Source: a virus (taxonomy: Duplodnaviria > Caudoviricetes). From it: 64,000 nt of DNA. The position numbers and the translations under genes were made by a program. Positions 3,294-61,598 of this stretch are shown here, piece by piece (positions within the stretch are counted from its first letter, which is position 1; each line of letters starts with the position of its first letter). Location: IMG/VR virus record IMGVR_UViG_3300025392_000002; one strand, 5' to 3'. The notes below the pieces were generated by a model. It was not told where the DNA came from, searched no databases, and was given only the letters and a program-made list of their open reading frames with translations.

Positions 3294-3523
3294 AGTAGTG
3301 GTAGTTGGGTGTTTTTAGTAGTTTCAATATTTTCTTTAATAATCTGAAAGAAAATTTCTCGATCCTCATAGCTATAACGATCTAGTAAATCGTTAATCGA
3401 TACACCTCCACGCATGTACCAGCCAATTTTGTAAAGTTCTAATTTAAATTCTTTGCTTTCTTCTTCTAGCCTAATTAGATCCTGTTGGATATCCTCGGAG
3501 CTTTTTCCAATTAGGCTTAGACG
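3290..3523 (-). CDS. gp51-like tail/baseplate assembly segment, probably expressed as a -1 frameshift extension of the upstream gene (absent from ORF track)
   Basis: Open 77-codon -1 frame RLSLIGKSSEDIQQDLIRLEEESKEFKLELYKIGWYMRGGVSINDLL...ENIETTKNTQLPLL; only ATG is internal (3415). Confidence 0.7.
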   Translation of the reverse strand, partial: RLSLIGKSSEDIQQDLIRLEEESKEFKLELYKIGWYMRGGVSINDLLDRYSYEDREIFFQIIKENIETTKNTQLPLL

Positions 3524-4335: not shown

Positions 4336-4348
4336 ATTTTACTCCTGA

Positions 4349-4373
4349 TAAATATATGTAGTGTGTATTTATA
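4349..4373. promoter_or_regulatory. face-to-face pair of T4-type late promoters
   Basis: TAAATA + strand 4349-4354 (tape measure) and TATAAATA - strand 4366-4373 (gp26-like). Confidence 0.65.
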
Positions 4374-4398
4374 TACGCATATTTCTTAGGATTTTTAA

Positions 4399-12392: not shown

Positions 12393-12424
12393 TTCAAACC
12401 TAAACAGTTTGTTAGTAATAAAAC

Positions 12425-12449
12425 AAAAGGGATCTTCGGATCCCTTTTT
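12425..12449 (+). terminator. rho-independent terminator after capsid gene
   Basis: AAAAGGGATC-TTCG-GATCCCTTTTT. Confidence 0.9.
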
Positions 12450-12466
12450 GTTTGGGTAAATATATG

Positions 12467-14898: not shown

Positions 14899-14907
14899 TA
14901 AACTAAT

Positions 14908-14926
14908 AGGGCCCTTCGGGGCCCTT
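14908..14926 (+). terminator. UUCG hairpin terminator with short U tract
   Basis: AGGGCCC-TTCG-GGGCCCT-T. Confidence 0.7.
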
Positions 14927-14939
14927 ACAGGATTCTAGA

Positions 14940-45369: not shown

Positions 45370-45393
45370 AAACCGGCCATCTAGGCCGGTTTT
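45370..45393 (+). terminator. rho-independent terminator ending the fibre operon
   Basis: AAACCGGCC-ATCTA-GGCCGGTTTT. Confidence 0.85.
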
Positions 45394-45447
45394 CACGACT
45401 AACGTATCTATTGACGGCTAAGTACTACTACAAATCTCAGAGGTAAT

Positions 45448-47085
45448 ATGGATAATTTTGAATACAAAAAAGTAGTAATAGTCGGTGGTGGAAGTTCAGG
45501 TTGGATGACGGCAGCCGCTCTATCTAAACTATGCCCACACTTGGAAATCACCTTAATTGAATCTAAAAAAATTGGAACTGTAGGTGTCGGCGAGTCTACA
45601 CTAGGCCATATCAATCGGTATTTAAACTTATTAGGTTTAAAAGATGAAGATTGGATGAAAGCCTGCAATGCTACGTATAAAAATTCAATCAGATTTACCA
45701 ACTTTAGAGAAAACAAAGGCGAATCCTTTGAATATCCATTTATTAACGGATATGATTTAACAGATAAACATAATGGATTGCAATCATGGGGTGAAGTTGC
45801 AACTATGTACCCAGACGATTATCCACCTGAAACTTTTTCAGAATTTTATGCGCCAGTTAATACACTACTAGCAAAGTATAATAAAGAAACTAAAAATGAA
45901 AACGGAGAATTCCGCCATTATGATTTCCCTACAAATACTGCTTATCACATGGATGCGGGTTTGTTTGGAGAATGGTTAAAAAATAATATAGCACTACCTA
46001 ATGGTGTAAAACAAGAATTCGGTGAATTGCATTCTTTTAGAAAAGATCCTAAAGGGAATCTTTCTCAAGTACTAACAACAGATGGAAGAACTTTCAATGG
46101 AGATCTATGGATTGACTGTACTGGCTTTAGAAGTTTGTTACTAGAAGAATGGATGGGATCATTTTTTATTCCGTTTGAAAATCAATTAGCCAATGATATG
46201 GCATGGGCATGTAGAATTCCTTACATTGATAGAGATAAGGAAATGCACAATGTTACAGATTGCCATGCATTAAACAATGGCTGGGTTTGGAATATTCCTT
46301 TATGGAATCGTATTGGTACTGGATATGTGTTTTCTTCAAGATTCTGTACACCACAAGAAGCTCAGAAAGAGTTCAGAGCTCATCTAGCTAAGAGCGATCC
46401 TAAACGTGCCGAAGAAGCAGAAATGTTCCAAGTTAAAATTAGACACGGTTATAGACATCGTGCTTGGAAAATGAATGTAGTAGGTGTTGGGTTAAGTTAT
46501 GGGTTTGTTGAACCATTAGAATCTACTGGATTACTAACAACACATGAAAATATTATAAGACTAGTTGATGTATTAAATCGTCGCAATGGATATGTTACTA
46601 GTGTGGAAAAAGAAGCATATAATCTAGCCGCACAATTAGAAGTTACCGGTTTCAGGGACTTTGTAGCATGTCATTATGCATTATCAAAGAGAACTGATAC
46701 TCCTTACTGGCGTTGGTATACACAAATTAATGATTTGTTTCCTTTGCAGTTTAACGATTTTATCCCAGCAATGCATACTGCATCAAATGCAATAGCGGCA
46801 TTAGCTAGTAATCATTATAACGAAAGTACTCAAGGGTTGTCATTTATCATGGCCGGCATGGGTATTAAAAATATATCAACACCCGCACTAGTGACAAGTA
46901 CAATCAGCAGTACTGGTACATCTGCACCAATAAGATTAACTGTAGATAAAATGGATGCAATTAATGATACTAAACGTAAACACGAACAATATATAGAGTG
47001 GCTTACAGAACGTATTAAAGAATTACCAAGTCACTATGAATATTTGAGAGACAATATTTACGGCGGTACAGATGAACATCTGTAA
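45448..47085 (+). CDS. flavin-dependent (tryptophan-halogenase family) halogenase 1
   Basis: GGGSSG FAD motif, GVGEST, ATYK catalytic Lys, WVWNIP, FVEPLESTG. Confidence 0.92.
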   Translation: MDNFEYKKVVIVGGGSSGWMTAAALSKLCPHLEITLIESKKIGTVGVGESTLGHINRYLNLLGLKDEDWMKACNATYKNSIRFTNFRENKGESFEYPFINGYDLTDKHNGLQSWGEVATMYPDDYPPETFSEFYAPVNTLLAKYNKETKNENGEFRHYDFPTNTAYHMDAGLFGEWLKNNIALPNGVKQEFGELHSFRKDPKGNLSQVLTTDGRTFNGDLWIDCTGFRSLLLEEWMGSFFIPFENQLANDMAWACRIPYIDRDKEMHNVTDCHALNNGWVWNIPLWNRIGTGYVFSSRFCTPQEAQKEFRAHLAKSDPKRAEEAEMFQVKIRHGYRHRAWKMNVVGVGLSYGFVEPLESTGLLTTHENIIRLVDVLNRRNGYVTSVEKEAYNLAAQLEVTGFRDFVACHYALSKRTDTPYWRWYTQINDLFPLQFNDFIPAMHTASNAIAALASNHYNESTQGLSFIMAGMGIKNISTPALVTSTISSTGTSAPIRLTVDKMDAINDTKRKHEQYIEWLTERIKELPSHYEYLRDNIYGGTDEHL

Positions 47086-47848
47086 ATGGTTGTTTGGTAA
47101 AAAAGAAAAAAGCTGGATTAGGTTCTACAGTATGGAGCCTGGTGTTCCAGAAATTTTCCCTATACGACCTTCTTCTGAAATAAAACGAAATTGGATGGAT
47201 GTACAACAAGATCCAGATCCTGATAACGGGCCAATGTATACAAAAAATTGTCCTGGCATTAAGAAATTAGTAAATTCAGGGTGGGTACTTACTGCTCCTG
47301 CTGATTTTATAATTGCCACTAATGGAGATAAAACTACATTTCGTTGGAGAGAATCAAGGAAGTTTAATAGAGGAACGCCAGGTTGGGAAAACTATGTAGG
47401 ATTTCATAATCAGCATCAAACAGAGTTAACTTTAGATGATCCTGAAAAAAGTTTAAAGACTGTAGTTAAGTTGGATACTCCATGGCGCATCGCCGCCTCA
47501 GACGACATGATGTTATTACAACTGCCTGTCAGCTATAATAACGAGTCAAGATTTACTGCGGCTACCGGAGTGTTTGATCCACGGTTTGGCCATGTAGTAA
47601 ATGTACAACTGTATTGGCATGTATTTGAAGGTGAAACTTTAATTAAAGCAGGAACTCCTTTAGTACAGTATTTGCCAATACGCAGGGATTATTTAAATAT
47701 TAGCAATCATATTGTTACTATTGACACTGCTACCGAACAAGATTTGCTAACTGAACGTAAGTTTAATTATGCAACAAATTGTACTTTTATAACACATGAT
47801 AATATTGGCTCACGACTACGTAGAGCAGTAAAATCTTTAGCTAAGTAA
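47072..47848 (+). CDS. hypothetical protein, possibly dUTPase-like beta fold
   Basis: KNCPG...GWVL.APADF, IKAGTPLVQY.P motifs. Confidence 0.45.
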   Translation: MNICKWLFGKKEKSWIRFYSMEPGVPEIFPIRPSSEIKRNWMDVQQDPDPDNGPMYTKNCPGIKKLVNSGWVLTAPADFIIATNGDKTTFRWRESRKFNRGTPGWENYVGFHNQHQTELTLDDPEKSLKTVVKLDTPWRIAASDDMMLLQLPVSYNNESRFTAATGVFDPRFGHVVNVQLYWHVFEGETLIKAGTPLVQYLPIRRDYLNISNHIVTIDTATEQDLLTERKFNYATNCTFITHDNIGSRLRRAVKSLAK

Positions 47849-47864
47849 TTCACAGGAGAATTAA

Positions 47865-48122
47865 ATGGAATATATCGACCACCTAAATCAATCTATTGAG
47901 AATGTTCAATCAGAATTGACTCGAGTTAAAGAAGAACTAGCAGTCCTAGAAAAAGATTTTGGCGATGTTAAACTTAATCCGTACGGAGTAACTAACATTG
48001 ATTTCAGCAAAAGACAAGAACTTATGAGCGATGCCTTAAAAATGGAAGGCGCAATAATGGGCCTAAATTTAGCTAAGGAAGCGTTTACCGGAGTAGCACC
48101 GGATGCAGTGGCCACACCTTAA
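47865..48122 (+). CDS. small coiled-coil hypothetical protein
   Basis: 85 aa, strong AGGAGA SD. Confidence 0.7.
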   Translation: MEYIDHLNQSIENVQSELTRVKEELAVLEKDFGDVKLNPYGVTNIDFSKRQELMSDALKMEGAIMGLNLAKEAFTGVAPDAVATP

Positions 48123-48705
48123 TGTAGTGCGTGATGGGCAGATGGCTGACCCATTTCCAAATTTAATTTGGAAATATCATTACGAGTTTGATTGGGATAA
48201 ACTAAAAGATAAAGTTTATAATCACATACAAAGCACTTCATGCTCGACATCGTTAGAGTTAGGCGATTCTCAATCTTCTATAGGTGCCGCTTATGAAGAC
48301 AGAGTTATCAATTGGCCAGAAATGCAGGATTTTCTCAAGTGGTTAGAACCTGTTTTTGAATTTCAGTGGCGTCATCACGGATATGTATACCAAGAAAAAC
48401 GTATTGGAGAAGTATGGTTTAATCGTCACGGCTTTGGAGGCCAAACACTTGAACACCATCACAACGGTATAGGACTAGTTCTTACTGCATACTTACAATT
48501 ACCTCCCGGGAGTGGATTCATCGAATTCCGAGATCCTTTAGAATATCACAAAGCCAACAGTCCTATTATTCCTGAAAATTTGTTATGGAAGTCTGTAGAA
48601 TGTGAGACAAATGATATTCTTATTTTTCCTGGATGGTTAAAACATCGAACACAGCCTAGTAACTCTAATGAAGACCGTGTTGTTATGACTATGAATATAA
48701 GATGA
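48103..48705 (+). CDS. 2OG-Fe(II) oxygenase (TIGR02466-like)
   Basis: WFN...EHHH, F.DP, IFPGWLKH.T, RVVMTMN; true start may be slightly downstream. Confidence 0.85.
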   Translation: MQWPHLNVVRDGQMADPFPNLIWKYHYEFDWDKLKDKVYNHIQSTSCSTSLELGDSQSSIGAAYEDRVINWPEMQDFLKWLEPVFEFQWRHHGYVYQEKRIGEVWFNRHGFGGQTLEHHHNGIGLVLTAYLQLPPGSGFIEFRDPLEYHKANSPIIPENLLWKSVECETNDILIFPGWLKHRTQPSNSNEDRVVMTMNIR

Positions 48706-49478
48706 ACTTTGTAACATGCTATCCAGATGCAAACTCGTTTAAAGATATTATACATGTCAAATCATTAGAAGATTGGCATGTTGAATATGTACCTTTAACA
48801 GATACTACAGGTTATTGGGTTGGAGATAATCCATTTTACGATAACGGATTTGACTTGTATAGAGATCTAGTTGCTATGTTTCCTATAGTATCTTCTAACA
48901 ATGACAAATATTGCTGGGATGCAAATCCTTTTGCTACAATACATCTACCAAGTTGGGCAAGCGAGTCTATTGCTGTACTAATAAAAGAATTTTATTTAAA
49001 AAATATTAGCCCGTACGGCAGTAATAGTCAAATAAACGAATGGGGAAATTTATATCGCAATGATGCCAAGCCGTTAAAAGCCTATCAGATTCCGCATATA
49101 GATTATCAAGCAGGTTTTATTGGAAATTTATGGTTCAGTAGCCACGAACCAGGTACTACTGGTACTAACATTTATGAATACACTGGAAAATATATAGATT
49201 CAGCTTATGATTTCCAAGTAGATACTAACCACCCGTTGCATGAAGAATATAAGTCTAGTCTTTATAGATTGGATAAATGGGAAAATTTTTCTGAAGAAGA
49301 CGCAGAGCACTGGGGATTTAAAAAACTTGGATTTGCTCCGTGCGTTGAAGGCAAGATGACCATGTATAAAGCTAACCAACCACATTGCCCTTGGCTTGAT
49401 AATAGTGTAAAATTTAGATGGTCTCACTCATATGCATTTCATTATGAGCCAATTAGAATGAGCAATTTAATAAAATGA
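48702..49478 (+). CDS. putative 2OG-Fe(II) oxygenase
   Basis: PHID, TGT.IY, distal QPH and R. Confidence 0.6.
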   Translation: MNFVTCYPDANSFKDIIHVKSLEDWHVEYVPLTDTTGYWVGDNPFYDNGFDLYRDLVAMFPIVSSNNDKYCWDANPFATIHLPSWASESIAVLIKEFYLKNISPYGSNSQINEWGNLYRNDAKPLKAYQIPHIDYQAGFIGNLWFSSHEPGTTGTNIYEYTGKYIDSAYDFQVDTNHPLHEEYKSSLYRLDKWENFSEEDAEHWGFKKLGFAPCVEGKMTMYKANQPHCPWLDNSVKFRWSHSYAFHYEPIRMSNLIK

Positions 49479-50068
49479 ACTTAGATGTATATTTTCCAAC
49501 TCCAGTTTGGTGGGAAGATCTCACCATTAACAACACTGAAATTTTAGATTTCTGCCATGAAATGCAGATCAAAAATCCTACTGGTCGACGTATTAGCAAT
49601 GTCGGCGGCTGGCAATCTGACGATATTGGGCCAGACGAATACCCTGAACTAAAATCTTTAGTAGATGCCATTTATGAAAAAACTAAATTTTGTTTAGAGA
49701 CTTACGGATTTGCACCAGAGTCGGTTAATATGACTATTGGAAATTTATGGATTAATATTAATAAAGAGTCAGATAGTAATGCTGTGCATACACATACCAG
49801 TGCTTTTTTATCCGGAGTCTACTACGTAAAGGCTAGTCGAAATAGTGCTCCTATTGTATTTTATAAAAATTTTGCAGAAGATGCAATAATTACATCAATT
49901 GCGCCAGTTGCAACATTTACACAGCTAAGTGGTTCTACTGCAAAGTATCCGCCTCGAGCTGGCCGCCTAGTTATGTTCCCAGCATGGTTACCGCATAGTG
50001 TATTGCCTAATCCAGTAGACGAAGAACGTATATCTATTGCATTCAATATAAAGATGAAACAATGTTAG
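49475..50068 (+). CDS. 2OG-Fe(II) oxygenase (TIGR02466-like)
   Basis: FPTP, SNVGGWQS, WININ, HTH..LSGVYY, FPAWLPHSV, RISIAFN. Confidence 0.92.
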   Translation: MNLDVYFPTPVWWEDLTINNTEILDFCHEMQIKNPTGRRISNVGGWQSDDIGPDEYPELKSLVDAIYEKTKFCLETYGFAPESVNMTIGNLWININKESDSNAVHTHTSAFLSGVYYVKASRNSAPIVFYKNFAEDAIITSIAPVATFTQLSGSTAKYPPRAGRLVMFPAWLPHSVLPNPVDEERISIAFNIKMKQC

Positions 50069-50781
50069 AAACTCTTGGCCAACAATTACTGAATGGTATA
50101 AATTTTGACTACGATGATCGTGCTGGATTTTTTCCAGGTTTAATTGCTAATCCTGAAAAATTCTTAACATGGAAAGATGTCGAAGAATGTGTTAACCGTC
50201 CAGAGTTATGGGAATTTGAAATAATTGATAGCAATAATAATAAAATTGATATTCCAGTTAGTACAAAAATGTGGAAGTATTCTGGAACTGTACAAGACAA
50301 ATCTTTATTAGCTAGGTATATTAATCAAGGTTGCACAGCAGTAATTACTAATTACGGATTTAAGAATGAATGGACCAATGAACTATTAAAAGTATTTGAA
50401 AATATTTTTAATGTTCATGCGGCTATACACGTATACTGCGGTTTACAAGGTAGTAAAAGTTTTACTATACACGACGACTATCCTGCAAACTTTATTATAC
50501 AAGTTGAAGGGGAAACACGATGGAAAATATTTAAAAATCGTATATCCTATTTGTATAAAACCGGAAGAATGAATGGTAAGTTAACTGATGATATGTTAGA
50601 TGTAGATATTGATGTAGTGCTTAAACCTGGAGATGTGTTGTATATTCCAGCAAGAGCATATCATGTAGCATATCCTGATCAAAAAAGATTATCTATGAGT
50701 ATTCCTTGTTGGAACAAACTGTCTACAGATGTACCGTCATTAGCTATTGATAGAAATACCTACAGGATTAATTATGAATGA
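50062..50781 (+). CDS. JmjC/cupin-4 oxygenase (ROXA/YcfD-like)
   Basis: SFTIHDD...FIIQVEG..RW, LKPGDVLYIP..YH. Confidence 0.85.
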   Translation: MLETLGQQLLNGINFDYDDRAGFFPGLIANPEKFLTWKDVEECVNRPELWEFEIIDSNNNKIDIPVSTKMWKYSGTVQDKSLLARYINQGCTAVITNYGFKNEWTNELLKVFENIFNVHAAIHVYCGLQGSKSFTIHDDYPANFIIQVEGETRWKIFKNRISYLYKTGRMNGKLTDDMLDVDIDVVLKPGDVLYIPARAYHVAYPDQKRLSMSIPCWNKLSTDVPSLAIDRNTYRINYE

Positions 50782-51361
50782 AACGTATATAGTTTTACGT
50801 AATGCAATTAATCCTGATCTTTGCAAGTTTATAAAAACAGAAGTTACCCTTATTGAAAATGTTATAAATTATCAGGGTAGAAATACTCGCATAGAAAAAG
50901 GTCAAGAAGAATCTTTTGGAGTATATGGATTATTTTGCTTTGAATCCTTGTCTTTACATTTAAAATCTTTAGTAGAGGAAAGTACAGGTAAACAATTATT
51001 CCCAACATATACATACGGACGGGTGTATAGAACTGGTGCAAAATTAGAAAAGCACATTGATAGACGAAGTAGCGAATACACAGTTTCTTGTTGTATAGAA
51101 AAAGACCCAGTTGATTGGCTATTAGCTGTAGAAGATAGTACAGGAGTAGTATCCAAAATTTTATTAGAACAGGGCGATATATTAATATATAAAGGTAGTA
51201 CACATTATCATTGGCGAGAAGGTGCATTTTCTGGTAAAGAACAACTACAAATATTCTTGCAGTATGTAGATGTTCATGGTAGCAACACAGATTTAAAATA
51301 CGATAAACGACCAATGTTAGGTTTACCCGTATCACAGGAGTTTTTAAATGAAGCCAATTGA
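50774..51361 (+). CDS. 2OG-Fe(II) oxygenase
   Basis: RVY..G..L.KHIDR..EY, GD..IY.G...HWRE, Q.FLQYV; ATG at 50774 preferred. Confidence 0.85.
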   Translation: MNETYIVLRNAINPDLCKFIKTEVTLIENVINYQGRNTRIEKGQEESFGVYGLFCFESLSLHLKSLVEESTGKQLFPTYTYGRVYRTGAKLEKHIDRRSSEYTVSCCIEKDPVDWLLAVEDSTGVVSKILLEQGDILIYKGSTHYHWREGAFSGKEQLQIFLQYVDVHGSNTDLKYDKRPMLGLPVSQEFLNEAN

Positions 51362-51920
51362 AATAGAAAATGTTATTGATAAAGAATATCAACAAAAAAT
51401 ATATGACACTGTAACTAGTATAGACTTCCCATGGCATTATATGGAAGATACTACATTTGAAGTTAAACAAACAAAATACGACACTACGCCGGCCTTTGGT
51501 CATCTATTATTTTCTAATCAAACAAAAAGCGAATATCTCGATGTGTTTACACCATTGATGCTAACGGCTATTGAAAAATGTGGATTAAAACTTATTAGTC
51601 CGTTAAGATTACGTCTTGGGTTTTTATTGAACACAATATATCCGTTACCAAGTATTGGATACAAACATAATACACCGCATGTAGACGCTTCGGTAGATCA
51701 TTATACTATATGCTACTATGTTAACTCATCTGATGGCGCCACAATGATTTTTAATCAACAGGAAGAGTCAGAAAAATATACATTATTACACAAAGTTGAA
51801 CCTCGACAGGGTAAAATTGTATGTTTTGATGGTAAGAATTATCATGCAAGTACTTGTCCTAAAATGCATTCTAGCCGAATAGTGCTTACTATTAATTTTA
51901 CTGCTGAAAAAAATGCATAA
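51348..51920 (+). CDS. 2OG-Fe(II) oxygenase (prolyl-hydroxylase-like)
   Basis: FPW, PHVD, YYVN.SDG.T, FDG..YHAS..P, R..IN. Confidence 0.88.
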   Translation: MKPIEIENVIDKEYQQKIYDTVTSIDFPWHYMEDTTFEVKQTKYDTTPAFGHLLFSNQTKSEYLDVFTPLMLTAIEKCGLKLISPLRLRLGFLLNTIYPLPSIGYKHNTPHVDASVDHYTICYYVNSSDGATMIFNQQEESEKYTLLHKVEPRQGKIVCFDGKNYHASTCPKMHSSRIVLTINFTAEKNA

Positions 51921-52554
51921 TAGAAAAAACAGATTGTATTATCCATTCATCCCTACAATCGTAGTTGATGATTTTTTTGAAACTCCAGAGATGATCAGGA
52001 GTTTTGCACTGTCTCAGGATTTTTTTAAAGGGGATCGTGGATATTGGCCTGGAGTTCGAAGTAAGATGCTAGATGAAACTAGTACAGAATTGTTTAATTT
52101 GATGCAATATAATATATTAAATTGTTTGCCACAATTTAAAAAATTTGAAAAGTTTGAAAGTACCTTTCATCTTTGTAATGAGAGCTATGTAAGAGGCTGG
52201 GTACATGATGATGCACCCGATGTTAATGTTGCAGGGTTTGTATATCTATCTCCTAATCCTCCATTAAATACTGGAACTACATTTTTTGAAGATTCTATTG
52301 AACAAATGATGTCGCAGTATTTAGAGCCTTTTATGGACGATGTTTCAAGGATGCCCGATGAACCTCCTAGATTAGAATACAGCAAGTATAGAGATGAACA
52401 AATAAGCTGGTTTAAAAAATCGTTAAGTATTGACAATATGTTTAATCGTGCTATAATATTTGATCCGCGTACTTGGCATGCCGCAGATAATTTTTTTGGA
52501 ACTACTAAAGAAGATTCCAGATTAACTATTGTATTTTTTGGGAGAGCAGTATGA
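51913..52554 (+). CDS. 2OG-Fe(II) oxygenase (DUF6445-like)
   Basis: VVDDFF..P, WPGVRS, GWVHDD, YL.P...GT, FNR...WH, RL..VFF. Confidence 0.82.
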   Translation: MHNRKNRLYYPFIPTIVVDDFFETPEMIRSFALSQDFFKGDRGYWPGVRSKMLDETSTELFNLMQYNILNCLPQFKKFEKFESTFHLCNESYVRGWVHDDAPDVNVAGFVYLSPNPPLNTGTTFFEDSIEQMMSQYLEPFMDDVSRMPDEPPRLEYSKYRDEQISWFKKSLSIDNMFNRAIIFDPRTWHAADNFFGTTKEDSRLTIVFFGRAV

Positions 52555-53261
52555 CAACTTTATCAGATATAAAAGACATTGATCAACGTGCTCAAGTAAG
52601 TGCTGGCTTAATTAAAAACCATGACCTTAAAAACAGGAAAAAATTTCCATTTATTCCAACAAGAATAGTTGATAATTTTTTTGAAGCTCCTATGGGTTGG
52701 CGGGCATTTGCCTTAGACCAGTCCTACGAAAGAAGCGATACTGGTACTTGGCCGGGTGTTAGATCGAAGTCGTTAGATCAACTTGATCCTGATATGTTTG
52801 AAATATTTGCTAAAAAACTATTACAAGTTCTTCCAGAATTTGTCGGTTTTCGAGAATTAGGAATTAATTTTCATCTTATAGACGAAACTTTTGATAAAGG
52901 ATGGGTTCATGACGATGATCCTACATTGAATGTCGTAGGAGTTGTTTACTTGAATAAAAATGCACCTCCAGATTCAGGCACGACATTGTATTGTGACCAG
53001 TACGATTTAGACGCCGATCGTTATAGATCTTTATTTAAACAAGATGTACTCAGTATTGATCCCGAAGAAAGAAAAAAACTAACGTATGCAAGAGACGATC
53101 AGAGAAGCAAATACAGACCAAGTATGGTGGTTGAAAATGTTTTTAATCGATGCGTAATTTATGACCCACGTACTTGGCATAGCCCTAATAAATTTTTTGG
53201 TAAAACAAAAGAAGATTCGCGTCTTAATATTGTATTTTTTGCACAAGGTGTACGTAAATGA
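52551..53261 (+). CDS. 2OG-Fe(II) oxygenase (DUF6445-like), paralogue of previous gene
   Basis: Same motifs incl. DPRTWH...FFG.TKEDSRL. Confidence 0.82.
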   Translation: MTTLSDIKDIDQRAQVSAGLIKNHDLKNRKKFPFIPTRIVDNFFEAPMGWRAFALDQSYERSDTGTWPGVRSKSLDQLDPDMFEIFAKKLLQVLPEFVGFRELGINFHLIDETFDKGWVHDDDPTLNVVGVVYLNKNAPPDSGTTLYCDQYDLDADRYRSLFKQDVLSIDPEERKKLTYARDDQRSKYRPSMVVENVFNRCVIYDPRTWHSPNKFFGKTKEDSRLNIVFFAQGVRK

Positions 53262-53875
53262 ATTTAAGATTTGCTAATTTTTCTAACTTCGGATTTGTTA
53301 GAGATACAGTTCCTAGCGATGTACTTTTATCTTTAAAATCAGAAATTGACTGCATCGATTTAGATAAAACTAATACTATTTCAGGACAATTAGCAGGAAA
53401 TATTGAAAAACAATTTGAACTATCAAGTAGTAATGCGGCACTAGAACCTTATGTATTATATCTTTGCCGAGAATATCTCAATACATTTAATCCTGCACAT
53501 ACGTTTCAATTTTCTCAAATAAAAAACTTAAAATTAAATGCATCATGGGTAAATTTTCAAAAGAAGAATGAATTCAATCCTATACATACACATGACGGCA
53601 TGTTTAGTTTTGTAATATGGATTAAAATTCCTTATTCTATAGATTCAGAAATATCTCAACCCCATGTTGTTAATTCTAATATGCGACGTGCAGGTATGTT
53701 TTCTTTTATGTATACAAATGTATTCGGAGAAATTAGAGAATCTGTGCAGGCAATTGATAGTTCATTTGAAGGTGAAATATTTTTATTTCCTGCATCTTTT
53801 ATGCATCAAGTATATCCGTTCACTACTTCAGACGACTACAGAATTTCTATATCAGGAAATATTATAAATGGATGA
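53258..53875 (+). CDS. 2OG-Fe(II) oxygenase
   Basis: LAGNI, WVNFQ..EFNP.HTH.G.FSFV, FP...HQVYPF, RISISGN. Confidence 0.88.
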   Translation: MNLRFANFSNFGFVRDTVPSDVLLSLKSEIDCIDLDKTNTISGQLAGNIEKQFELSSSNAALEPYVLYLCREYLNTFNPAHTFQFSQIKNLKLNASWVNFQKKNEFNPIHTHDGMFSFVIWIKIPYSIDSEISQPHVVNSNMRRAGMFSFMYTNVFGEIRESVQAIDSSFEGEIFLFPASFMHQVYPFTTSDDYRISISGNIING

Positions 53876-54467
53876 TATCATCATAATTGAAAATGTAATT
53901 TCTAAAGATTACCAGAATCATATATTGTCACATGCATCAAGTTTAAAGTTTCCATGGTATTTCAATCCCAACATGGTTAGTGAGCATGATCCAGTTGCAA
54001 ACGATCCTAAAAATGTTATGGGATTTAATCATTTTTTATACGAAGAAGGCAAACCAGTTAGTCCATTCTTTGACTCGGTATATCCTTTAATACTATCTAT
54101 TACTGGAAAAACAAATGTACAATTTCAACAGTTAGAGCGTATGCGATTTAATTTAACTTTTAAGAATACATCGAGCACAGAAAACTGGCACTTGCCACAT
54201 ATTGACACCGCTCATCCGCATTTGGTTGCAATTTATTACGTGAACGATAGTGATGGCGATACTGTTATTTTTAATGAAACTAACGACTCATACAAACCAA
54301 AAGATTTTGATAAAATGAAATCTGAGGACTTCACAGTCAAGGCACGGATAACTCCTAAACAAGGAAAAATGGTAATTTTTCCAGGACAATATTATCATGC
54401 ATCATCATATCCAAGAAATTCTAAATACAGAATGGTGATTAATTCAAATTTAGGAAACATTCTCTAA
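53868..54467 (+). CDS. 2OG-Fe(II) oxygenase (prolyl-hydroxylase-like)
   Basis: FPW, PHID, YYVNDSDGDT, YHASS.P, R.VIN. Confidence 0.88.
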   Translation: MDDIIIIENVISKDYQNHILSHASSLKFPWYFNPNMVSEHDPVANDPKNVMGFNHFLYEEGKPVSPFFDSVYPLILSITGKTNVQFQQLERMRFNLTFKNTSSTENWHLPHIDTAHPHLVAIYYVNDSDGDTVIFNETNDSYKPKDFDKMKSEDFTVKARITPKQGKMVIFPGQYYHASSYPRNSKYRMVINSNLGNIL

Positions 54468-54991
54468 TGCAAGATTACATGGTTTATAAATCTCAATTGA
54501 TTATAGATAATCAACCACAAATTATCTATGAGCTAGAACGAGCACATTATCACTTTACAAAAAACTTTCATAAAATGGATCCTACTTGGGGCTATGCATT
54601 TTATAACATATTTGCTATTACTAGTCCTAGTCCGTTGTTTTATGATATACTGCAAGAAATGAAACAACAAGTTCGTGAATTCACGGGCATCAAAGGTCCT
54701 ATGTGGTTTCAGTCATGGCTTAACTATCATAAACCTGACGAAGTTTTAGACTGGCACGATCATCAATGGCCGTGGCACGGTTATTTTAGTATTGATCCTA
54801 AAAATACAAAAACAGTATTTGAAGGTTATGAAATTCTTAATGAAGTGGGTAATGTATATATTGGCCCAGGATTTAGAAAGCATAAGGTTGAGGTACTAGA
54901 ATCGTACGAAACCCCAAGAATTACCCTGGGGTTTGATATTGAAACACGCCCTAATTTATGCTATGAGCAGTTTTCGTTAATACCGTTTTAA
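54467..54991 (+). CDS. putative 2OG-Fe(II) oxygenase
   Basis: SWLN...WHDH, distal HKV, RITLGFD. Confidence 0.7.
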   Translation: MQDYMVYKSQLIIDNQPQIIYELERAHYHFTKNFHKMDPTWGYAFYNIFAITSPSPLFYDILQEMKQQVREFTGIKGPMWFQSWLNYHKPDEVLDWHDHQWPWHGYFSIDPKNTKTVFEGYEILNEVGNVYIGPGFRKHKVEVLESYETPRITLGFDIETRPNLCYEQFSLIPF

Positions 54992-55281
54992 TAAGGTACA
55001 TCGATTGGTGGAATTGTACCAGCTGGATGTGCCGCAAATCTAGGATCTTGATAGTACGGCGGAGGTAAAACTGGCTCCCAATCTGTAGTATTTTCTTCCT
55101 CATTAGTCTGCATGGCCCATATAGTAGCTTTTTTCTTAGCTTGTGCAAGGCTATCAATATGTGGGCGATTATGATAATTAGGATGTGCTGGATCTTCAGC
55201 ATGTTCTGGGTGTGCATGTGGTAGCTCCCAGTCCCTAATTTCTTCGGTTTTAGTGTTTTTTATTTGAACATGAAATGGCAT
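54988..55281 (-). CDS. His/Pro-rich small hypothetical protein
   Basis: 97 aa, AGGAG SD, own late box at 55308-55313. Confidence 0.7.
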   Translation of the reverse strand: MPFHVQIKNTKTEEIRDWELPHAHPEHAEDPAHPNYHNRPHIDSLAQAKKKATIWAMQTNEEENTTDWEPVLPPPYYQDPRFAAHPAGTIPPIDVPY

Positions 55282-55313
55282 TTTTTACTCCTAACGGATT
55301 GATACGTTATTTA

Positions 55314-55979
55314 TCAATGATATTGCTTAGATCTTGGAACTGGAGTGTACTGGGCGATTACATTTTTAATGAAAAATACTTGCGATAATCTAAACCCTTC
55401 CCCTGTTTCAAAATTATCTGCTTTGTGATACGATTCTCCATCGTACGCAATCATACGATTATACTTGTTGGTGAACCTTATAGTTTCTGAGAATTTGCTA
55501 TTGTGGTTAGAAATTGTCTGATCGTATAAGTCTGGATCTACAGTTTCTCCCTTAAAAAACGCATGTTTAACGCTACTAACGTCTTCTAAAATAGCATCCT
55601 TTTTTAACTCATAAATCGAAGTTCCGCTTGATGGATCAGGATTGTCATTTAAATAAATTATACCAGCAAATACTGTGTTATCGTCGGCATGAATCCACCC
55701 TGTATTTCTATACTTGGCAGTACCAGGCATTGGATAAATCTTTTGAAAATACGACGATACTTCCCATGTGATTGGCGCATTTGTCAAGTCATAAAACATA
55801 GAGAACAAGCGTTTGCAAGTCATCGATAACATTTTTACGTTTGTAGTATGTATAGCCGCACGTAGTCCAGGGTAGCTACCTTCAGGACAAGCTACATAAT
55901 CCAATTGAGATGCATACTTTTGCATTTGATCTGGATCATCGTAAAAGTTATCTACACAAATTGCTGGAAAATTTATCAT
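55314..55979 (-). CDS. 2OG-Fe(II) oxygenase (DUF6445-like)
   Basis: VDNFY.DP, YPGLR, GWIHAD, AGIIYL, YNR..Y...YH, RLSQVFF. Confidence 0.85.
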   Translation of the reverse strand: MINFPAICVDNFYDDPDQMQKYASQLDYVACPEGSYPGLRAAIHTTNVKMLSMTCKRLFSMFYDLTNAPITWEVSSYFQKIYPMPGTAKYRNTGWIHADDNTVFAGIIYLNDNPDPSSGTSIYELKKDAILEDVSSVKHAFFKGETVDPDLYDQTISNHNSKFSETIRFTNKYNRMIAYDGESYHKADNFETGEGFRLSQVFFIKNVIAQYTPVPRSKQYH

Positions 55980-56004
55980 AAGTTTGTATCCTCTGTAGTA
56001 GTTA

Positions 56005-56661
56005 TCATATTTCTAAAGACTGTAGAAAATAATTAGATATTGGTCCTTTGATAAAAGTATTAAAAGATAGCGAAATTCTGTTTGTATTACTGTTATTCTT
56101 TGATACTTTGTGTTCTAAACTACTTGGAAATAGAAGTAGGCTATGCTGTTTTGGAATTAATATCCAATGCTTTGAATTATAAATGTTACTGTTTACAGTA
56201 GTATATTCTATCTGCTGATATTGGCTATTTGAAAATATAAGATTTCCCGAGTCAGCATCAACATTGAAATAGTATACTCCGCTGATTATAGAGTTTGCAT
56301 GACGATGCCTGTGATGCTCCTGCCCCGGCTCGGTTTTGTTTAACCAACTTTCTGTAATATATATTTCAATATCAGGCTCAGCCTGCATTACTCCATAAAA
56401 ATATTGTTTTAATTCTGCTTGTATCAAAGAATAGAACCGAGTTTCTTTGACAGAATCTAACCAACGATTATCTTTACTTACATTATTATTATGATTGCTA
56501 GCCCATTCGACATTATCTCCGGACACCATAGTATCTAACGACATCAATTCTTCTGCTGTTTGTTGTACACCAAGATTATTAACATATACCGGAGAGCTAA
56601 AAAGTGGAATAATTTCGTGGCCAAAATTTATGTTCATTTTATTTCCATTCTTTGGGTGCAT
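56005..56661 (-). CDS. 2OG-Fe(II) oxygenase (TIGR02466-like)
   Basis: SWLN...HRHANS.ISGVYY, FPSSLEH.V, RISLSFN; start may be the second Met. Confidence 0.9.
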   Translation of the reverse strand: MHPKNGNKMNINFGHEIIPLFSSPVYVNNLGVQQTAEELMSLDTMVSGDNVEWASNHNNNVSKDNRWLDSVKETRFYSLIQAELKQYFYGVMQAEPDIEIYITESWLNKTEPGQEHHRHRHANSIISGVYYFNVDADSGNLIFSNSQYQQIEYTTVNSNIYNSKHWILIPKQHSLLLFPSSLEHKVSKNNSNTNRISLSFNTFIKGPISNYFLQSLEI

Positions 56662-58123
56662 TTATCATCACATTCAATGCTTCTCTGTGGGTTACAGTAT
56701 CATCAATATTTTTATAATAGCCTTCATCAAATGCTAGATCTTGTATAGATTTTTGTGTCAGATGATTGAAATTTTCTTGATATAGTGCTTTGATTTTTTC
56801 TGTGTTGAACATTTGTAAACCGTGCATAACCTGTGCAAAATTTAATCCTCTAAACATTAATAATGGAGACGATGAAAAATAAGTGTCATTAACAAAATTA
56901 TTTTTAAAGACGTCTATATATTCTTTGTTAAAATCTGTCATTTTAATATTATGTTTACACCACTTCCAAAATTCTGTATCTTCTCGAGTAGTGAAATAGT
57001 GAAGTTGTATAAAATCTATAATATTTGTTACAATAAGATTTGCAGACTCGTTATACTTTTTGACAGTAGTTTGATTTTCTCTACTCCATAACCCTAAAAA
57101 CGGTCCTAGCATTCTCACTAATTGTATAGTACTACCAATACTAGATGCTTCCAATGGCTCAACAAACATACTAGCTAGACCAACAGTTACACAATTTTTG
57201 ATCCAGCATTTATCTACATACCCTGCCGAGAATTTAATTTTCTTTCCTATACTAATCGTTTCTTCAAACTCTGATTGTACTTCATCGAAAGCTTCTGTTT
57301 CATTGATAAATGCATCACAGAATACATAACCGTTTCCAAATCTTTCTTGAGTAGGAATACGCCATCTCCATCCAGAACTCATAGCTTTTGCCAATGTATA
57401 TAATGGTAGAGACTCTTGGTATCCTGTAGGAAATGCTATAGCACTATTCATAGGTAGTTGTTCAGAACAATCTATCCACTTGGCTCCAAGTTTTGAAATA
57501 ATAATTCTATTAAATCCTGTAGAATCTATATAAAAATCATGTTCATAGACATTACCAGTAGCTCCAGTCAAACTTGATACAAACCCGTGGTCATCTAAAT
57601 TAACATCTATTATCTCGTCATCTATAATAGTGATATTTCTTTCTTTGCACAGTTTGTGGAAATAGTTGTTAAGTTTATTTGTATCAAAATGATACTGGCT
57701 AAAAGTTTCTAATATAGGATCTCTTAGTATCGATTTGATCCATGTGGGCCATAGTGTTTCTAAAGGATCAGCATTTTCTGATATTAATCTCATCATAGTA
57801 TACGGTATTGCAGTATACGGATCGTGTATACTGTATTTTTCAGATAGACTATGGAAATAAGTTTTACCGTCACTGCGCCATCCGTCAAACTTGATACCAG
57901 ATTTAAGTGTAGCACCGCATTCTCTTATTAGATCAAATCTTGAGATACCTACAGCTTGCATAAAGGTTGCCCAATGTTCTGTTGAACCTTCGCCGACTCC
58001 GATAATACCTATTTTACTTGATTCAATTATTGTTATTTCAGTATTTGGATGTGCTTTTTGTAAGTATAATGCAGATATTAATCCTGCTGTGCCTCCTCCG
58101 GCAATACATAATTTTTTTATCAT
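56639..58123 (-). CDS. flavin-dependent (tryptophan-halogenase family) halogenase 2
   Basis: GGGTAG, GVGEGS, ATLK, WRWRIP, FVEPLEAS. Confidence 0.92.
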   Translation of the reverse strand: MIKKLCIAGGGTAGLISALYLQKAHPNTEITIIESSKIGIIGVGEGSTEHWATFMQAVGISRFDLIRECGATLKSGIKFDGWRSDGKTYFHSLSEKYSIHDPYTAIPYTMMRLISENADPLETLWPTWIKSILRDPILETFSQYHFDTNKLNNYFHKLCKERNITIIDDEIIDVNLDDHGFVSSLTGATGNVYEHDFYIDSTGFNRIIISKLGAKWIDCSEQLPMNSAIAFPTGYQESLPLYTLAKAMSSGWRWRIPTQERFGNGYVFCDAFINETEAFDEVQSEFEETISIGKKIKFSAGYVDKCWIKNCVTVGLASMFVEPLEASSIGSTIQLVRMLGPFLGLWSRENQTTVKKYNESANLIVTNIIDFIQLHYFTTREDTEFWKWCKHNIKMTDFNKEYIDVFKNNFVNDTYFSSSPLLMFRGLNFAQVMHGLQMFNTEKIKALYQENFNHLTQKSIQDLAFDEGYYKNIDDTVTHREALNVMINAPKEWK

Positions 58124-58569
58124 ATTAAATCTACTAAATCAAATACGGTCTGGAGTTTTGTGCGGATAGTTTTTGAGCTAAAACTATTACGTAAACCTTG
58201 ATGTAACGGTTTAGGAGCACGATCTATAGTGGACCATGCCCAACCCATATGTTCGTCGCTTAAGACTGGAACAAATTCTGTGTCTATTACACACAAGTAT
58301 GTGTGGAAATTAAACACTTTGTCGTTGGACACAAATGTTTCCAAGGGAATTGTTTTTATAATATTGGGTAAACTACCAATTTCTTCAGTAATTTCACGTT
58401 GCAAACCCTGCCAAGGAGTTTCGCCTACTATGTTAGTACCGCCAACTAGACCCCATGTACCTTCATGCTTGCCTTGTGTTTTTTGTAATAGCAGGAAACG
58501 TCGCGTAGATTTAGCGTAGAACAATGCTCCGCTACATACAATACGATCTGTTACAAGTCTATTCTCCAT
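58120..58569 (-). CDS. NUDIX hydrolase
   Basis: Nudix box GTNIVGETPWQGLQREITEEIG. Confidence 0.9.
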   Translation of the reverse strand: MENRLVTDRIVCSGALFYAKSTRRFLLLQKTQGKHEGTWGLVGGTNIVGETPWQGLQREITEEIGSLPNIIKTIPLETFVSNDKVFNFHTYLCVIDTEFVPVLSDEHMGWAWSTIDRAPKPLHQGLRNSFSSKTIRTKLQTVFDLVDLI

Positions 58570-60050
58570 TGGCCCACGTCATAAAAACCTTCGAAGCTCT
58601 TGTTCCATGAAACACCGTTCCACAAATACTGAACTCCTGTATATATATTCGTTTGCCATACCATAGAGCTTGAATGTTGGCTAGCTGTAAACACTATTCT
58701 CCAAGCAGTACCACTCCACTCTATAATATCATTTGCATGGGCTACAAAATCTGTACCGGTAGTACTTTGCCATGCTTTTGCACCTGCACTTGCACTATTA
58801 GTTGTGCTACCTATATCTTCTATGATTAGTAGTCGTGTACCTACTGCAACAGGTTGGTCAGATTGTTCTTTACCTGTTGGACGTTTTGGATTATAAGTTG
58901 CAGGATCTACAATAGCATCGAATGTTCCTGGACTATTTGGTCTACTGCTAGTACCAGCATTATATCCGTAGTCTGAATCTAGTTTTCCAGTACTGTCAAT
59001 GCCTGTGTTTGTAACTAGTGTATCTGGATTCCAGTTAACACGCAATATCGTAGGATCGAATGAATCTAATGCAATAGTTCCAATAACTATTGCCCCGTTT
59101 GATTGTGTTAGATATATTTGACTTGATCCTGCAATATATTTTCCAGGATATGCATCAAACACTATATTCCAATCAATTGGCGTTCCTATCCGTGTGGGTG
59201 AAATATCTAGTGTAGGCTCTCGAGGATTCGTAGTGCCACCGGGCCCTAGTAGGTATGCCTTACCACCGTATACTTCTATCTTATAATTAGTAATTGTTGT
59301 TACATCAGTACTAACAAGGTCACTCATTGTCGTAGTTCCGGCAATAGGGTCCATGCCTAAACCTTCTATATAAGTTCCGCTAGTAGTATTAGCACCATAA
59401 AGACTAGTAATAATTTTTGTAATAACACCCAAGTGTTTGACTTTAACCGGAGGGTTAATCCAAATTGGAGTTTCTACTTCTAAAGTAGCAATGTCAATTG
59501 GAGTATCGTTACCTACAGGAACTTGTTTACTACTCCAAGTAATGTTTGATAAATTCAATACAGTTAAACTGGTCCAGTCTAAGTAATTGTCAGATGTTTG
59601 TAATTCTAATGTTGGATTAAACAATACTAAAATTTGTTCAAGTATTTGCAATTTTTGTTCGCTACTGCTAGACCAAATATCCACTTTCATTTTTAACTGA
59701 AAAGGTGTTGGCATCAGTCTTTCAACCATGTAGTTTTTACCTTGCCCAGTAGTATAAGTTCCAGAATCGATATCGCGTTCACGGATTTGTACTTTATCAA
59801 CAAATGTTTGATCGGCTAGACGATCTTTGTCCATACTCAAACCGTTGACATACACACTGATACGTGGCACACTATTAACTTTGTTTTCACTATTGTTACG
59901 TATGATGCTAGCAACTTGACGATCTGCATCTCCATACATGACAGGTACGCGAACTAGTGTTCCATCACCGTACTTGACTGCAAAGTTACTAAACACACGA
60001 ATAGTTTGTATGATGTAACGTCTTATTTGTCCGTCGTAAAAAAATTGCAT
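58551..60050 (-). CDS. tail completion/sheath stabiliser (T4 gp15-like)
   Basis: FFYD.QIRRY, VPVMYGD, QILEQIL.LFNP motifs. Confidence 0.75.
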   Translation of the reverse strand: MQFFYDGQIRRYIIQTIRVFSNFAVKYGDGTLVRVPVMYGDADRQVASIIRNNSENKVNSVPRISVYVNGLSMDKDRLADQTFVDKVQIRERDIDSGTYTTGQGKNYMVERLMPTPFQLKMKVDIWSSSSEQKLQILEQILVLFNPTLELQTSDNYLDWTSLTVLNLSNITWSSKQVPVGNDTPIDIATLEVETPIWINPPVKVKHLGVITKIITSLYGANTTSGTYIEGLGMDPIAGTTTMSDLVSTDVTTITNYKIEVYGGKAYLLGPGGTTNPREPTLDISPTRIGTPIDWNIVFDAYPGKYIAGSSQIYLTQSNGAIVIGTIALDSFDPTILRVNWNPDTLVTNTGIDSTGKLDSDYGYNAGTSSRPNSPGTFDAIVDPATYNPKRPTGKEQSDQPVAVGTRLLIIEDIGSTTNSASAGAKAWQSTTGTDFVAHANDIIEWSGTAWRIVFTASQHSSSMVWQTNIYTGVQYLWNGVSWNKSFEGFYDVGQWRIDL

Positions 60051-61573: not shown

Positions 61574-61578
61574 AATGA

Positions 61579-61598
61579 TATTTATCGTTAGCTAAATA
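61579..61598. promoter_or_regulatory. back-to-back late promoters
   Basis: TAAATA on - strand 61579-61584 and + strand 61593-61598 between divergent neck genes. Confidence 0.65.

Follow-up and report, generated by a model that had tools for sequence, protein, structure and literature searches.

We describe a block of oxidative enzyme genes in a 64,000-nucleotide (nt) stretch of DNA from a virus of the Caudoviricetes (IMG/VR record IMGVR_UViG_3300025392_000002), and this whole stretch is referred to here as the window. The block (45448-58123) holds two flavin-dependent halogenases, 13 Fe(II)/2-oxoglutarate (2OG)-type oxygenases, a protein with a dUTPase fold and two small proteins, a description drawn from open reading frame (ORF) listing with Pfam and PHROG scans that we regard as near certain. 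Our data indicate that these genes are inherited together with one subfamily of fibre-tip domain and its neighbour gp40, that the unit moved between phage lineages, and that it is probably expressed late. The best-supported reading, which we rank first at a probability of roughly 40%, is that the fibre tip is the substrate of the enzymes, by the mechanism set out below.

Lists of auxiliary metabolic genes (AMGs) have included the 'prnA' halogenases of cyanophages and their large sets of 2OG oxygenases since 2007, and the cyanophage halogenase VirX1 has been in use as a biocatalyst since 2019. The tandem dioxygenase and tryptophan-halogenase array of cyanophage Syn9 was reportedly noted by Weigele et al. 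in 2007. Iyer, Abhiman, de Souza and Aravind analysed the Syn9 array in 2010 and proposed organohalogen secondary-metabolite synthesis, with the fibre genes unmentioned (PMC2938197). No report linking the array to fibre proteins was found in the literature searched. The enzyme array has thus already been described, and what is new here is the jumbo-type backbone, the evidence for block transfer, the lineage-conserved promoter and a second arm fused to the neck operon.

The block consists of two convergent arms. The plus arm (45448-54991) opens with a halogenase, a protein of 258 amino acids (aa) and an 85-aa protein, which are followed by eleven small oxygenase-type genes (three PF13759, two DUF6445, two PF13640-like, one JmjC_2 and three without a Pfam match). 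The minus arm (58123-54988) contains, in this order, the second halogenase, a PF13759 gene, a DUF6445 gene and an orphan 97-aa ORF, and stops and starts overlap or nearly touch all through both arms. Three paralogous Gly_rich_2 tip proteins of approximately 280 aa each are encoded upstream of the island, while the genes downstream, on the minus strand, encode a NUDIX protein, a T4-gp15-like protein, a virion structural protein and a head-tail adaptor. A preliminary description of this DNA had reported two halogenases and about 13 oxygenases from several subfamilies with intact motifs and overlapping stops and starts, set between fibre-tip and neck genes, with a minus arm that continues the neck operon and without non-ribosomal peptide synthetase (NRPS) or polyketide synthase (PKS) genes. 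Each of these points was borne out: both halogenases match PF04820 and keep their motifs, ten of the 13 oxygenases are identified by Pfam and three by orthology, the island is clean of NRPS and PKS genes, and the giant ORFs of the window contain only CBM_5_12 domains.

We found that the enzymes and the tip are linked in both directions. Among 50,697 isolate phage records, gp40 is present in 20, and these are exactly the 20 with a halogenase at least 39.7% identical to halogenase 1, the first gene of the plus arm. Where coordinates were compared, gp40 adjoins the halogenase in every isolate record, and the tip subfamily was found in all examined genomes holding gp40 and a VirX1-type halogenase. 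We also collected 158 IMG/VR loci, 80 centred on gp43 (the gene of the dUTPase-fold protein) and 78 further ones centred on the tip, and these share one gene order over at least four architectures. The gp40 gene and the halogenase are present in 53 of the 53 tip-centred loci with at least 3 kb of downstream DNA, and the tip and gp40 are present in all gp43-centred loci with both a VirX1-type halogenase and sufficient upstream DNA. Distant cyanophage halogenases lie elsewhere without gp40, among recombination genes in S-B64 and beside psbA in S-MbCM6.

Phage S-B64 (MH107246.1; loci L085, L166 and L167) has a portal 90% identical to that of Syn9, and the whole tip-gp40-halogenase-oxygenase block is absent from it. 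It carries a weak, divergent Gly-rich tip homologue (71 vs 340-408 bits), no gp40 and a distant halogenase elsewhere, and no oxygenase is annotated after the tip homologue. Six non-Gly residues are invariant over 53 cassette-linked tips (T108, E134, Y168, F180, H198 and H221 in tip-B numbering), and the S-B64 homologue, in what is a single-phage comparison, differs at five of them. The strict two-way co-occurrence, the joint transfer and the all-or-none presence in close relatives support a non-random link between cassette and tip. Syn9 and S-B64 make up a natural pair with and without the block.

Overall, the block is the one known from Syn9. The best BLAST matches of the plus arm follow the order of Syn9 gp38-gp54 and S-CREM1 ORF67-80 at 40-68% identity, where orthology was called by one-direction BLAST of the window against the annotated Syn9 and S-CREM1 regions, and well over 100 IMG/VR loci also show the conserved gene order. 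When the island was compared with isolate phages by megablast there were no matches, and its relatives are detectable at the protein level. The window shares with Syn9 gp38-gp54 the tip, gp40, a VirX1-type halogenase, a Cys-bearing dUTPase-fold neighbour, gp44 and approximately ten distinct 2OG oxygenases from multiple families including a JmjC protein of the MINA/NO66 clade, all in conserved order. The differences are that gp47 and gp54 are relocated, that the DUF6445 gene is duplicated, that there is an extra PF13759 gene, that the plus arm has one halogenase and the Syn9 region two, that a terminator and a separate late promoter lie between gp40 and the halogenase, and that the window has the convergent second arm (halogenase 2 and two oxygenases) fused to the neck operon. 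The backbone and the attachment part also differ, since the window has a jumbo-type backbone and three tips with another N-terminal attachment part.

We compared the relatedness of the cassette with that of the backbone. The gp15-like protein is nearest to those of the jumbo phages Phosso, PA5oct and Atu_ph07 (31-37% identity), and the portal shares 68% identity with that of a 278-kb IMG/VR contig, against no more than 33-34%, over part of the length, with those of Syn9 and S-CREM1. The 507-aa virion protein of the window has no match in Syn9 or S-CREM1. Judged from these genes, the window backbone is that of a distant jumbo-type phage and not of a kyanovirus. Its portal is 34% identical to that of Syn9, compared with 65-73% among cassette-bearing Kyanoviridae. 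The halogenase, gp40 and JmjC proteins of the window share 49-61% identity with their Syn9 and S-CREM1 counterparts, which are themselves 60% identical to each other, and all three phages have only 30-44% identity in these proteins to P-TIM40, S-WAM1 and P-RSM6. Since the cassette is as close to Syn9 and S-CREM1 as those two are to each other while the portal is distant, the cassette tree conflicts with the backbone tree. The tips share a C-terminal domain (approximately 67% identity) and differ at the N-terminus (MAFDYQ... in the window and MSTLKV... in kyanoviruses), which places the left breakpoint inside the tip gene. On these comparisons, the block moved laterally as a unit together with the tip C-terminal domain.

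The phage appears to use T4-type late promoters. ATAAATA is the late core here, and it occurs nine times in the window, each time 12-90 nt upstream of a gene start, including those of the giant fibre and the neck operon; within the island it stands only before the 97-aa ORF. The bare hexamers TAAGTA and TAACTA, which the preliminary description had taken as late-type boxes, are not significant, with 43 and 80 occurrences in the window. Of its boxes, the one at 55308 is an ATAAATA and the one at 45419 lies at the promoter site of relatives. We found TAAATA 20-43 nt before the halogenase ATG in 50 of the 51 distinct long gp40-halogenase spacers of related loci, 27 of which carry the full TATAAATA and others variants such as CTAAATA, and the CTAAGTA box at 45418 occupies the position where relatives carry TATAAATA. 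A terminator-like hairpin precedes this box in the window, and a similar hairpin is present in 42 of the 51 related spacers; our terminator scan missed the one in the window since its T-run has only four T. In Kyanoviridae, the halogenase starts 3-56 nt after gp40, TATAAATA lies before gp40 or the tip, and coupling downstream is tight. The minus arm is joined through gene overlaps to a neck operon with an ATAAATA promoter, and the overlaps that run along this operon into halogenase 2 are -1, -19 and -4 nt. Sites from a sigma-70 promoter scan were no more frequent than in shuffled sequence. The predicted late expression of the cassette, also part of the preliminary description, is well supported by comparison, through the 50 of 51 spacers and the coupling to the neck operon.

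Halogenase 1 matches VirX1 of cyanophage Syn10 (PDB 6qgm) over its full length (E 9e-179, 599 bits), all other PDB entries reach at most 262 bits, and its identity to S-CREM1 ORF69 is 61%. Halogenase 2 is just 25-26% identical to the Syn9 and S-CREM1 halogenases and 49-55% identical to its counterparts in loci of the window's lineage; its best PDB matches are 9luq and Thal, with VirX1 at E 6e-37 only. By these matches, halogenase 2 belongs to a clade of flavin-dependent halogenases separate from VirX1. Both proteins keep GxGxxG (GGGSSG and GGGTAG, respectively), WxWxIP (WVWNIP and WRWRIP) and the catalytic-type Lys in a K-x-[GS]-I-[RK]-F context (K78 in halogenase 1). VirX1 forms a trimer, its active site is open to an unusual degree, and it prefers iodide (Gkotsi et al. 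2019 via PMC8407142). It halogenates many small aromatics in vitro, among them 6-azaindole, a deazapurine-like ring for which kinetic constants are tabulated, and neither a natural product nor a gene cluster is assigned to it in the table of that review (PMC8407142). Halogenase 1 resembles VirX1 in its full-length match and complete motif set, whereas halogenase 2 is of another clade.

The ten oxygenases with 2OG-type Pfam matches fall into PF13759 (four), DUF6445 (three), PF13640-like (two) and JmjC_2 (one). The three Pfam-less ORFs (48702-49478, 50747-51361 and 54467-54991) have orthologues in S-CREM1 that carry a 2OG oxygenase annotation, and two of the three show HxD...H. This motif is kept in most of the oxygenases and takes the form H-x-H...H in all four PF13759 genes. 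No AlkB or TET/JBP type was found among the oxygenases of the window, and PDB sequence searches with the DUF6445 and gp53-like oxygenases returned nothing informative. The nearest PDB entries of the PF13759 protein at 49475-50068 are 3bvc and 2rg4, uncharacterised bacterial proteins. For the JmjC protein (motif H137xD139...H201), the nearest PDB entries are NO66 (E 2e-7), YxbC, MINA53 and YcfD, which are protein His/Arg hydroxylases. The match to NO66 is confined to residues 107-203, so that the likeness to the ribosomal oxygenases NO66, MINA53 and YcfD covers the catalytic core with its intact HxD...H and does not extend to their dimerisation and winged-helix domains.

Tip A combines a lineage-specific N-terminus with a Gly/His-rich C-terminal domain, and it is 67% identical to Syn9 gp38 and S-CREM1 ORF67 over approximately 185 aa. 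An AlphaFold model of tip B, built with 53 homologues, has a mean predicted local distance difference test (pLDDT) score of 80.5, with residues 70-285 mostly above 90. The best Foldseek match of this model is the cryo-electron microscopy fibre of cyanophage Pam3 (7ypx/7yfw; E 1.7e-8, 28% identity), and the next best are the Bxb1 tail tip and the polyglycine-II glycine-rich domain of ALK/LTK. On these matches, the tips are genuine virion fibre domains. The gp40-like protein gave weak ESM-Atlas leads to XkdW and Caudo_TAP_N (0.84-0.86), look-alikes that are tail-fibre assembly proteins, and it is a probable tip helper or assembly factor.

We rank modification of the tip first because an adhesin is co-inherited with the enzymes, the JmjC protein has protein-hydroxylase relatives, the VirX1 site is open and no natural product or gene cluster is assigned to it, and neither a scaffold synthase nor a conserved precursor peptide was found in or beside the block. 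Under this reading, the enzymes would be made late, alongside the virion proteins, and would act in the cytoplasm on a phage protein, most likely the tip domain with which they are inherited, either ahead of its folding with the help of gp40 or while this folding takes place. In the loops between polyglycine strands, the oxygenases would add hydroxyl groups to side chains such as those of His, Asn, Asp, Pro or Arg, the halogenases, with host-reduced flavin adenine dinucleotide (FADH2), would halogenate exposed Tyr, Trp or His, and the altered side chains would adjust how the adhesin binds its receptor or metal. We are slightly more hesitant about the fuller proposal that the cassette as a whole is a dedicated post-translational tailoring system for the receptor-binding protein, with both halogenation and hydroxylation of the co-inherited Gly/His-rich tip. 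A comparable arrangement is found in bacterial operons that pair 2OG dioxygenases with collagen-like or tail-collar proteins, where oxygenases also lie beside a glycine-rich, fibre-type surface protein as the proposed substrate; those operons have beta-hydroxylase and PhyH types with sulfotransferases and no halogenase, and their pairing is likewise predicted only (PMC2938197). Halogenases of ribosomally synthesised and post-translationally modified peptides (RiPPs), such as ChlH (bioRxiv 10.1101/2025.01.12.632611), are flavin-dependent enzymes that act on a ribosomally made polypeptide, as is proposed here. Unlike in RiPP systems, there is no leader/core precursor, recognition element, protease or exporter here, and the protein proposed to be modified is structural, folded and 280 aa long.

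Several of the earlier proposals for this DNA bear on tip modification. The linkage of the cassette to the tips was upheld by co-occurrence, joint lateral transfer and all-or-none presence, as was the relationship of the JmjC protein to protein hydroxylases. The RiPP analogy failed, since no precursor-like peptide was found: the gp44-like protein is conserved and helical and the 97-aa ORF has no relatives in the 158 loci. The further idea of siderophore-like metal ligands gained no support. Enzyme content had been expected to co-vary with tip type, and when we ran this check no tip column separated the groups with and without JmjC or other enzymes, save three positions of the P-TIM40-like group.

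A number of observations, including this lack of visible co-variation between enzyme repertoire and tip residues, weigh against modification of the tip. The metagenomic loci are phylogenetically clustered, so that their counts overstate the number of independent events, and some cyanophage halogenases sit far from fibre genes. The chief weakness is that the conserved tip sequence may just be a recombination anchor for a mobile accessory block, which would give the same linkage. Within the window, the hairpin at 45373-45393 parts the tip operon from the halogenase arm, and the promoter box of the plus arm is degenerate (CTAAGTA only). The JmjC protein alone has protein-modifying relatives, while no member of PF13759, DUF6445 or the other families has been characterised, and gp43, with its dUTPase fold, may bind a ligand that resembles a nucleotide. 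We know of no phage fibre protein reported as modified by these enzymes. Finally, the array was read as secondary-metabolite machinery by Iyer et al. 2010 (PMC2938197).

That published proposal for Syn9, made by analogy with cephamycin and halogenase-containing clusters (PMC2938197), is the strongest competitor, and we consider it unlikely but far from negligible. The enzymes would act serially on a host-derived amino acid, short peptide, pigment or lipid to give a halogenated, hydroxylated antibiotic, signal or siderophore-like compound, and the fibre link would mark a landing site of mobile accessory DNA. Related bacterial dioxygenases and halogenases adjoin TonB receptors, NRPS genes and sulfotransferases (PMC2938197), VirX1 acts in vitro on many small aromatics (PMC8407142), most structurally solved flavin-dependent halogenases use free tryptophan or small molecules, and the nearest PF13759 structures are the uncharacterised bacterial proteins named above. 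However, we found no NRPS/PKS scaffold synthase or carrier-protein domain in the island or the giant ORFs, and the annotations of the Syn9 and S-CREM1 stretches list none. The Pfam and PHROG scans of the ORFs, which were not aimed at transporters or resistance genes, gave no protease or transporter family. With structural-type late promoters, a metabolite would be made too late to be of much use to the phage, and a small-molecule product leaves unexplained why the block has a constant tip subfamily and gp40 and why it starts inside the tip gene.

Modification of a different protein target is a reading that we regard as somewhat less probable again. Candidate targets are the giant CBM fibres, parts of the neck or sheath, and host ribosomal proteins or translation factors, as with YcfD, NO66 and MINA53. 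The JmjC protein does fall in the ribosomal-oxygenase clade (PMC2938197), the minus arm overlaps gp15 and neck genes rather than tips, and a 2OG oxygenase was found in the virion proteome of cyanophage S-SCSM2R (PMC12801897). Nevertheless, the cassette is common to the window and Syn9/S-CREM1 while the giant fibres and neck genes are not, the tip and gp40 are the only structural genes that travel with the enzymes, and the phage JmjC protein, at 239 aa, lacks the dimerisation and winged-helix domains of the ribosomal oxygenases.

The third competing target is suggested by the gp43-like protein. A model of a gp43 homologue (pLDDT 87.6) had dUTPases as all of its top 11 matches in a VIA search (Z 9.4-7.3; best root-mean-square deviation 2.7 over 117 residues) and matched the dUTPase fold in Foldseek at E 1.6e-4. 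This model reproduces the dUTPase-fold call of Iyer et al. for the Syn9 protein (PMC2938197). C60 is invariant across 20 homologues, and motif-like stretches are present (APADF, TPWR, G..DPR(Y/F)GH and NVQL). In the third of these, Arg stands at what we read, from the motif by eye, as the place of the second (catalytic) Asp of canonical dUTPase motif 3. The C-terminus is helical in the model, replacing the motif-5 arm, and no Pfam dUTPase or Dcd match was found even at E <= 1. Nucleotide or DNA chemistry, in which the dUTPase-fold protein would bind a nucleotide, the halogenase and oxygenases would modify a base or the pool, and the NUDIX protein would belong to the same pathway, is very improbable, for although the fold (Z 9.4) and motif-like stretches of gp43, the deazapurine-like ring of 6-azaindole and the NUDIX gene abutting halogenase 2 favour it, gp43 has the deviations just given and no Pfam match, its fold is often co-opted non-enzymatically (e.g., herpesvirus ORF10 and pp71), the oxygenases include no AlkB or TET/JBP type, and NUDIX is a backbone gene that lies beside gp15 in PA5oct-like phages in which the cassette was not found.

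In relatives among the IMG/VR loci, gp43 always adjoins a halogenase, and where it is found apart from tips it is a paralogue that neighbours the second halogenase, in the minus arm that is particular to the lineage of the window. Such a second paralogue is present in loci L049, L051, L052, L057-L060, L077 and L082, mostly near the NUDIX gene, and the window's own minus arm is without one. The position of these paralogues indicates that the dUTPase-fold protein tracks halogenases and not oxygenases. The IMG/VR search for gp43 gave nothing with a single sequence and worked with a three-sequence alignment. Only four matches to gp43 were found in cellular genomes, on metagenome-assembled genome, single-cell or suspiciously phage-sized contigs, and no bacterial context could be learned from them. 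One lies in a Nonlabens xiamenensis assembly (L170), on a 188,235-bp contig that is as large as a cyanomyovirus genome, and another in the single amplified Prochlorococcus cell AG-418-C09 (L171); both contigs are probably from contaminating or infecting phage.

Two small proteins were considered as precursor peptides and rejected. An alignment of 34 gp44 sequences (33 homologues and that of the window) describes a conserved helical protein with no variable core, and in one locus it runs into the next oxygenase. In this kyanovirus-type contig (L043:10765-11589), the gp44 frame is open, without a stop, into the following PF13759 oxygenase, where a sequencing error is possible; this hints that gp44 is a partner of that oxygenase. 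The orphan 97-aa ORF, which sits where the two arms converge, has no tblastn relative at E <= 1e-5 in the 158 related IMG/VR loci, the ground on which it was rejected, and none at E <= 1e-4 in the Syn9, S-CREM1, P-TIM40, S-WAM1, S-B64, S-MbCM6 and P-RSM6 stretches.

Coordinates of the cassette, the fibre-tip genes, the adjoining late operon and associated signals in the window.
Feature	Coordinates	Strand	Basis and remarks
Fibre-tip protein A, 279 aa	42194..43033	+	PF21722 Gly_rich_2, phrog_863
Fibre-tip protein B, 285 aa	43043..43900	+	PF21722
Fibre-tip protein C, 290 aa	43927..44799	+	PF21722
gp40-like small protein, 180 aa	44813..45355	+	phrog_1787; 49-55% identity to Syn9 gp40 and S-CREM1 ORF68
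Terminator-like hairpin, CCGGCC-ATCTA-GGCCGG-TTTT	45373..45393	+	read from sequence; 3' of the tip/gp40 operon
Degenerate late-promoter box, CTAAGTA	45418..45424	+	23 nt before the halogenase 1 ATG
Halogenase 1, VirX1 orthologue, 545 aa	45448..47085	+	PF04820 E 4e-104
gp43-like dUTPase-fold protein, invariant Cys60, 258 aa	47072..47848	+	phrog_7084, no Pfam match
gp44-like small helical protein, 85 aa, motif KLNPYG(I/V)T..IDF	47865..48122	+	46-49% identity to Syn9 gp44 and S-CREM1 ORF71
2OG oxygenase, Syn9 gp45 orthologue	48103..48705	+	PF13759
Probable 2OG oxygenase, Syn9 gp46 / S-CREM1 ORF73 orthologue	48702..49478	+	phrog_1644, no Pfam match; 45% identity to S-CREM1 ORF73 (annotated 2OG oxygenase); H132xD present
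2OG oxygenase, Syn9 gp48 orthologue	49475..50068	+	PF13759 E 1.5e-23
JmjC oxygenase, MINA/NO66 clade, Syn9 gp49 orthologue, 239 aa	50062..50781	+	PF08007 E 1e-18
Probable 2OG oxygenase, Syn9 gp54 orthologue	50747..51361	+	phrog_2954; 41-42% identity to Syn9 gp54 and S-CREM1 ORF80; H103xD...H177
2OG oxygenase, S-CREM1 ORF77 orthologue	51348..51920	+	PF13640-like
Two tandem DUF6445 oxygenases, Syn9 gp52 family	51913-52554 and 52551-53261	+	PF20043 E 1e-16 and 1.5e-10; HDD...H
2OG oxygenase, no Syn9 orthologue	53258..53875	+	PF13759; present in many loci of the window's lineage
2OG oxygenase, Syn9 gp53 orthologue	53868..54467	+	
Probable 2OG oxygenase, Syn9 gp47 orthologue, at the end of the plus arm	54467..54991	+	phrog_2696, weak phrog_81; 38% identity to S-CREM1 ORF74
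Orphan His/Pro/Trp-rich ORF, 97 aa	54988..55281	-	own ATAAATA late box 55314-55308, strong AGGAG ribosome-binding site
DUF6445 oxygenase, minus arm	55314..55979	-	PF20043 E 1.4e-15
2OG oxygenase, minus arm	56005..56661	-	PF13759 E 1.3e-22
Halogenase 2, 494 aa	56639..58123	-	PF04820 E 2e-101
Backbone late operon running into halogenase 2	58120..61585	-	ATAAATA box 61585-61579; phrog_11591, PF16724 and PF00293 given jointly for the operon
NUDIX protein	58120-58569	-	part of the backbone late operon
T4-gp15-like protein	58551-60050	-	part of the backbone late operon
Virion structural protein	60050-61573	-	bases as given jointly for the operon

Two giant ORFs of the plus strand (20800-29610 and 29658-41012; 2936 and 3784 aa) contain only CBM_5_12 repeats, with four and three matched stretches, respectively. 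They are presumably fibre shafts, and they have no counterpart in Syn9 or S-CREM1. Neither psbA nor hli is present in five related large contigs that are 36-75% complete. Further transcription signals were seen outside the cassette. The 63-nt divergent spacer at 4336-4398, between the genes at 3517-4335 (minus strand) and 4399-6369 (plus strand), holds two opposed ATAAATA boxes in a near-palindrome and looks like a bidirectional late promoter. Strong GC-rich hairpins with UUCG-type loops follow two structural genes, at 12393-12451 (GGGATCTTCGGATCCC and a T-run) and at 14899-14939 (GGGCCCTTCGGGGCCC), and these resemble elements that terminate or stabilise late transcripts of high expression.

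Our comparisons show that the array forms a single mobile unit together with a particular fibre-tip domain and the probable helper of that tip, and that this unit crosses very different phage lineages and probably has late promoters. This replaces a vague AMG label with a specific, testable candidate target, the gp38-type protein of Syn9 and Syn10. If modification of the tip is correct, it would name the natural substrate of the viral halogenases and would be the first enzymatic halogenation of a virion protein. It would also describe a module of adhesin and enzymes that moves between unrelated phage lineages, and would expose a previously unrecognised layer of chemistry behind the host range of abundant marine phages.

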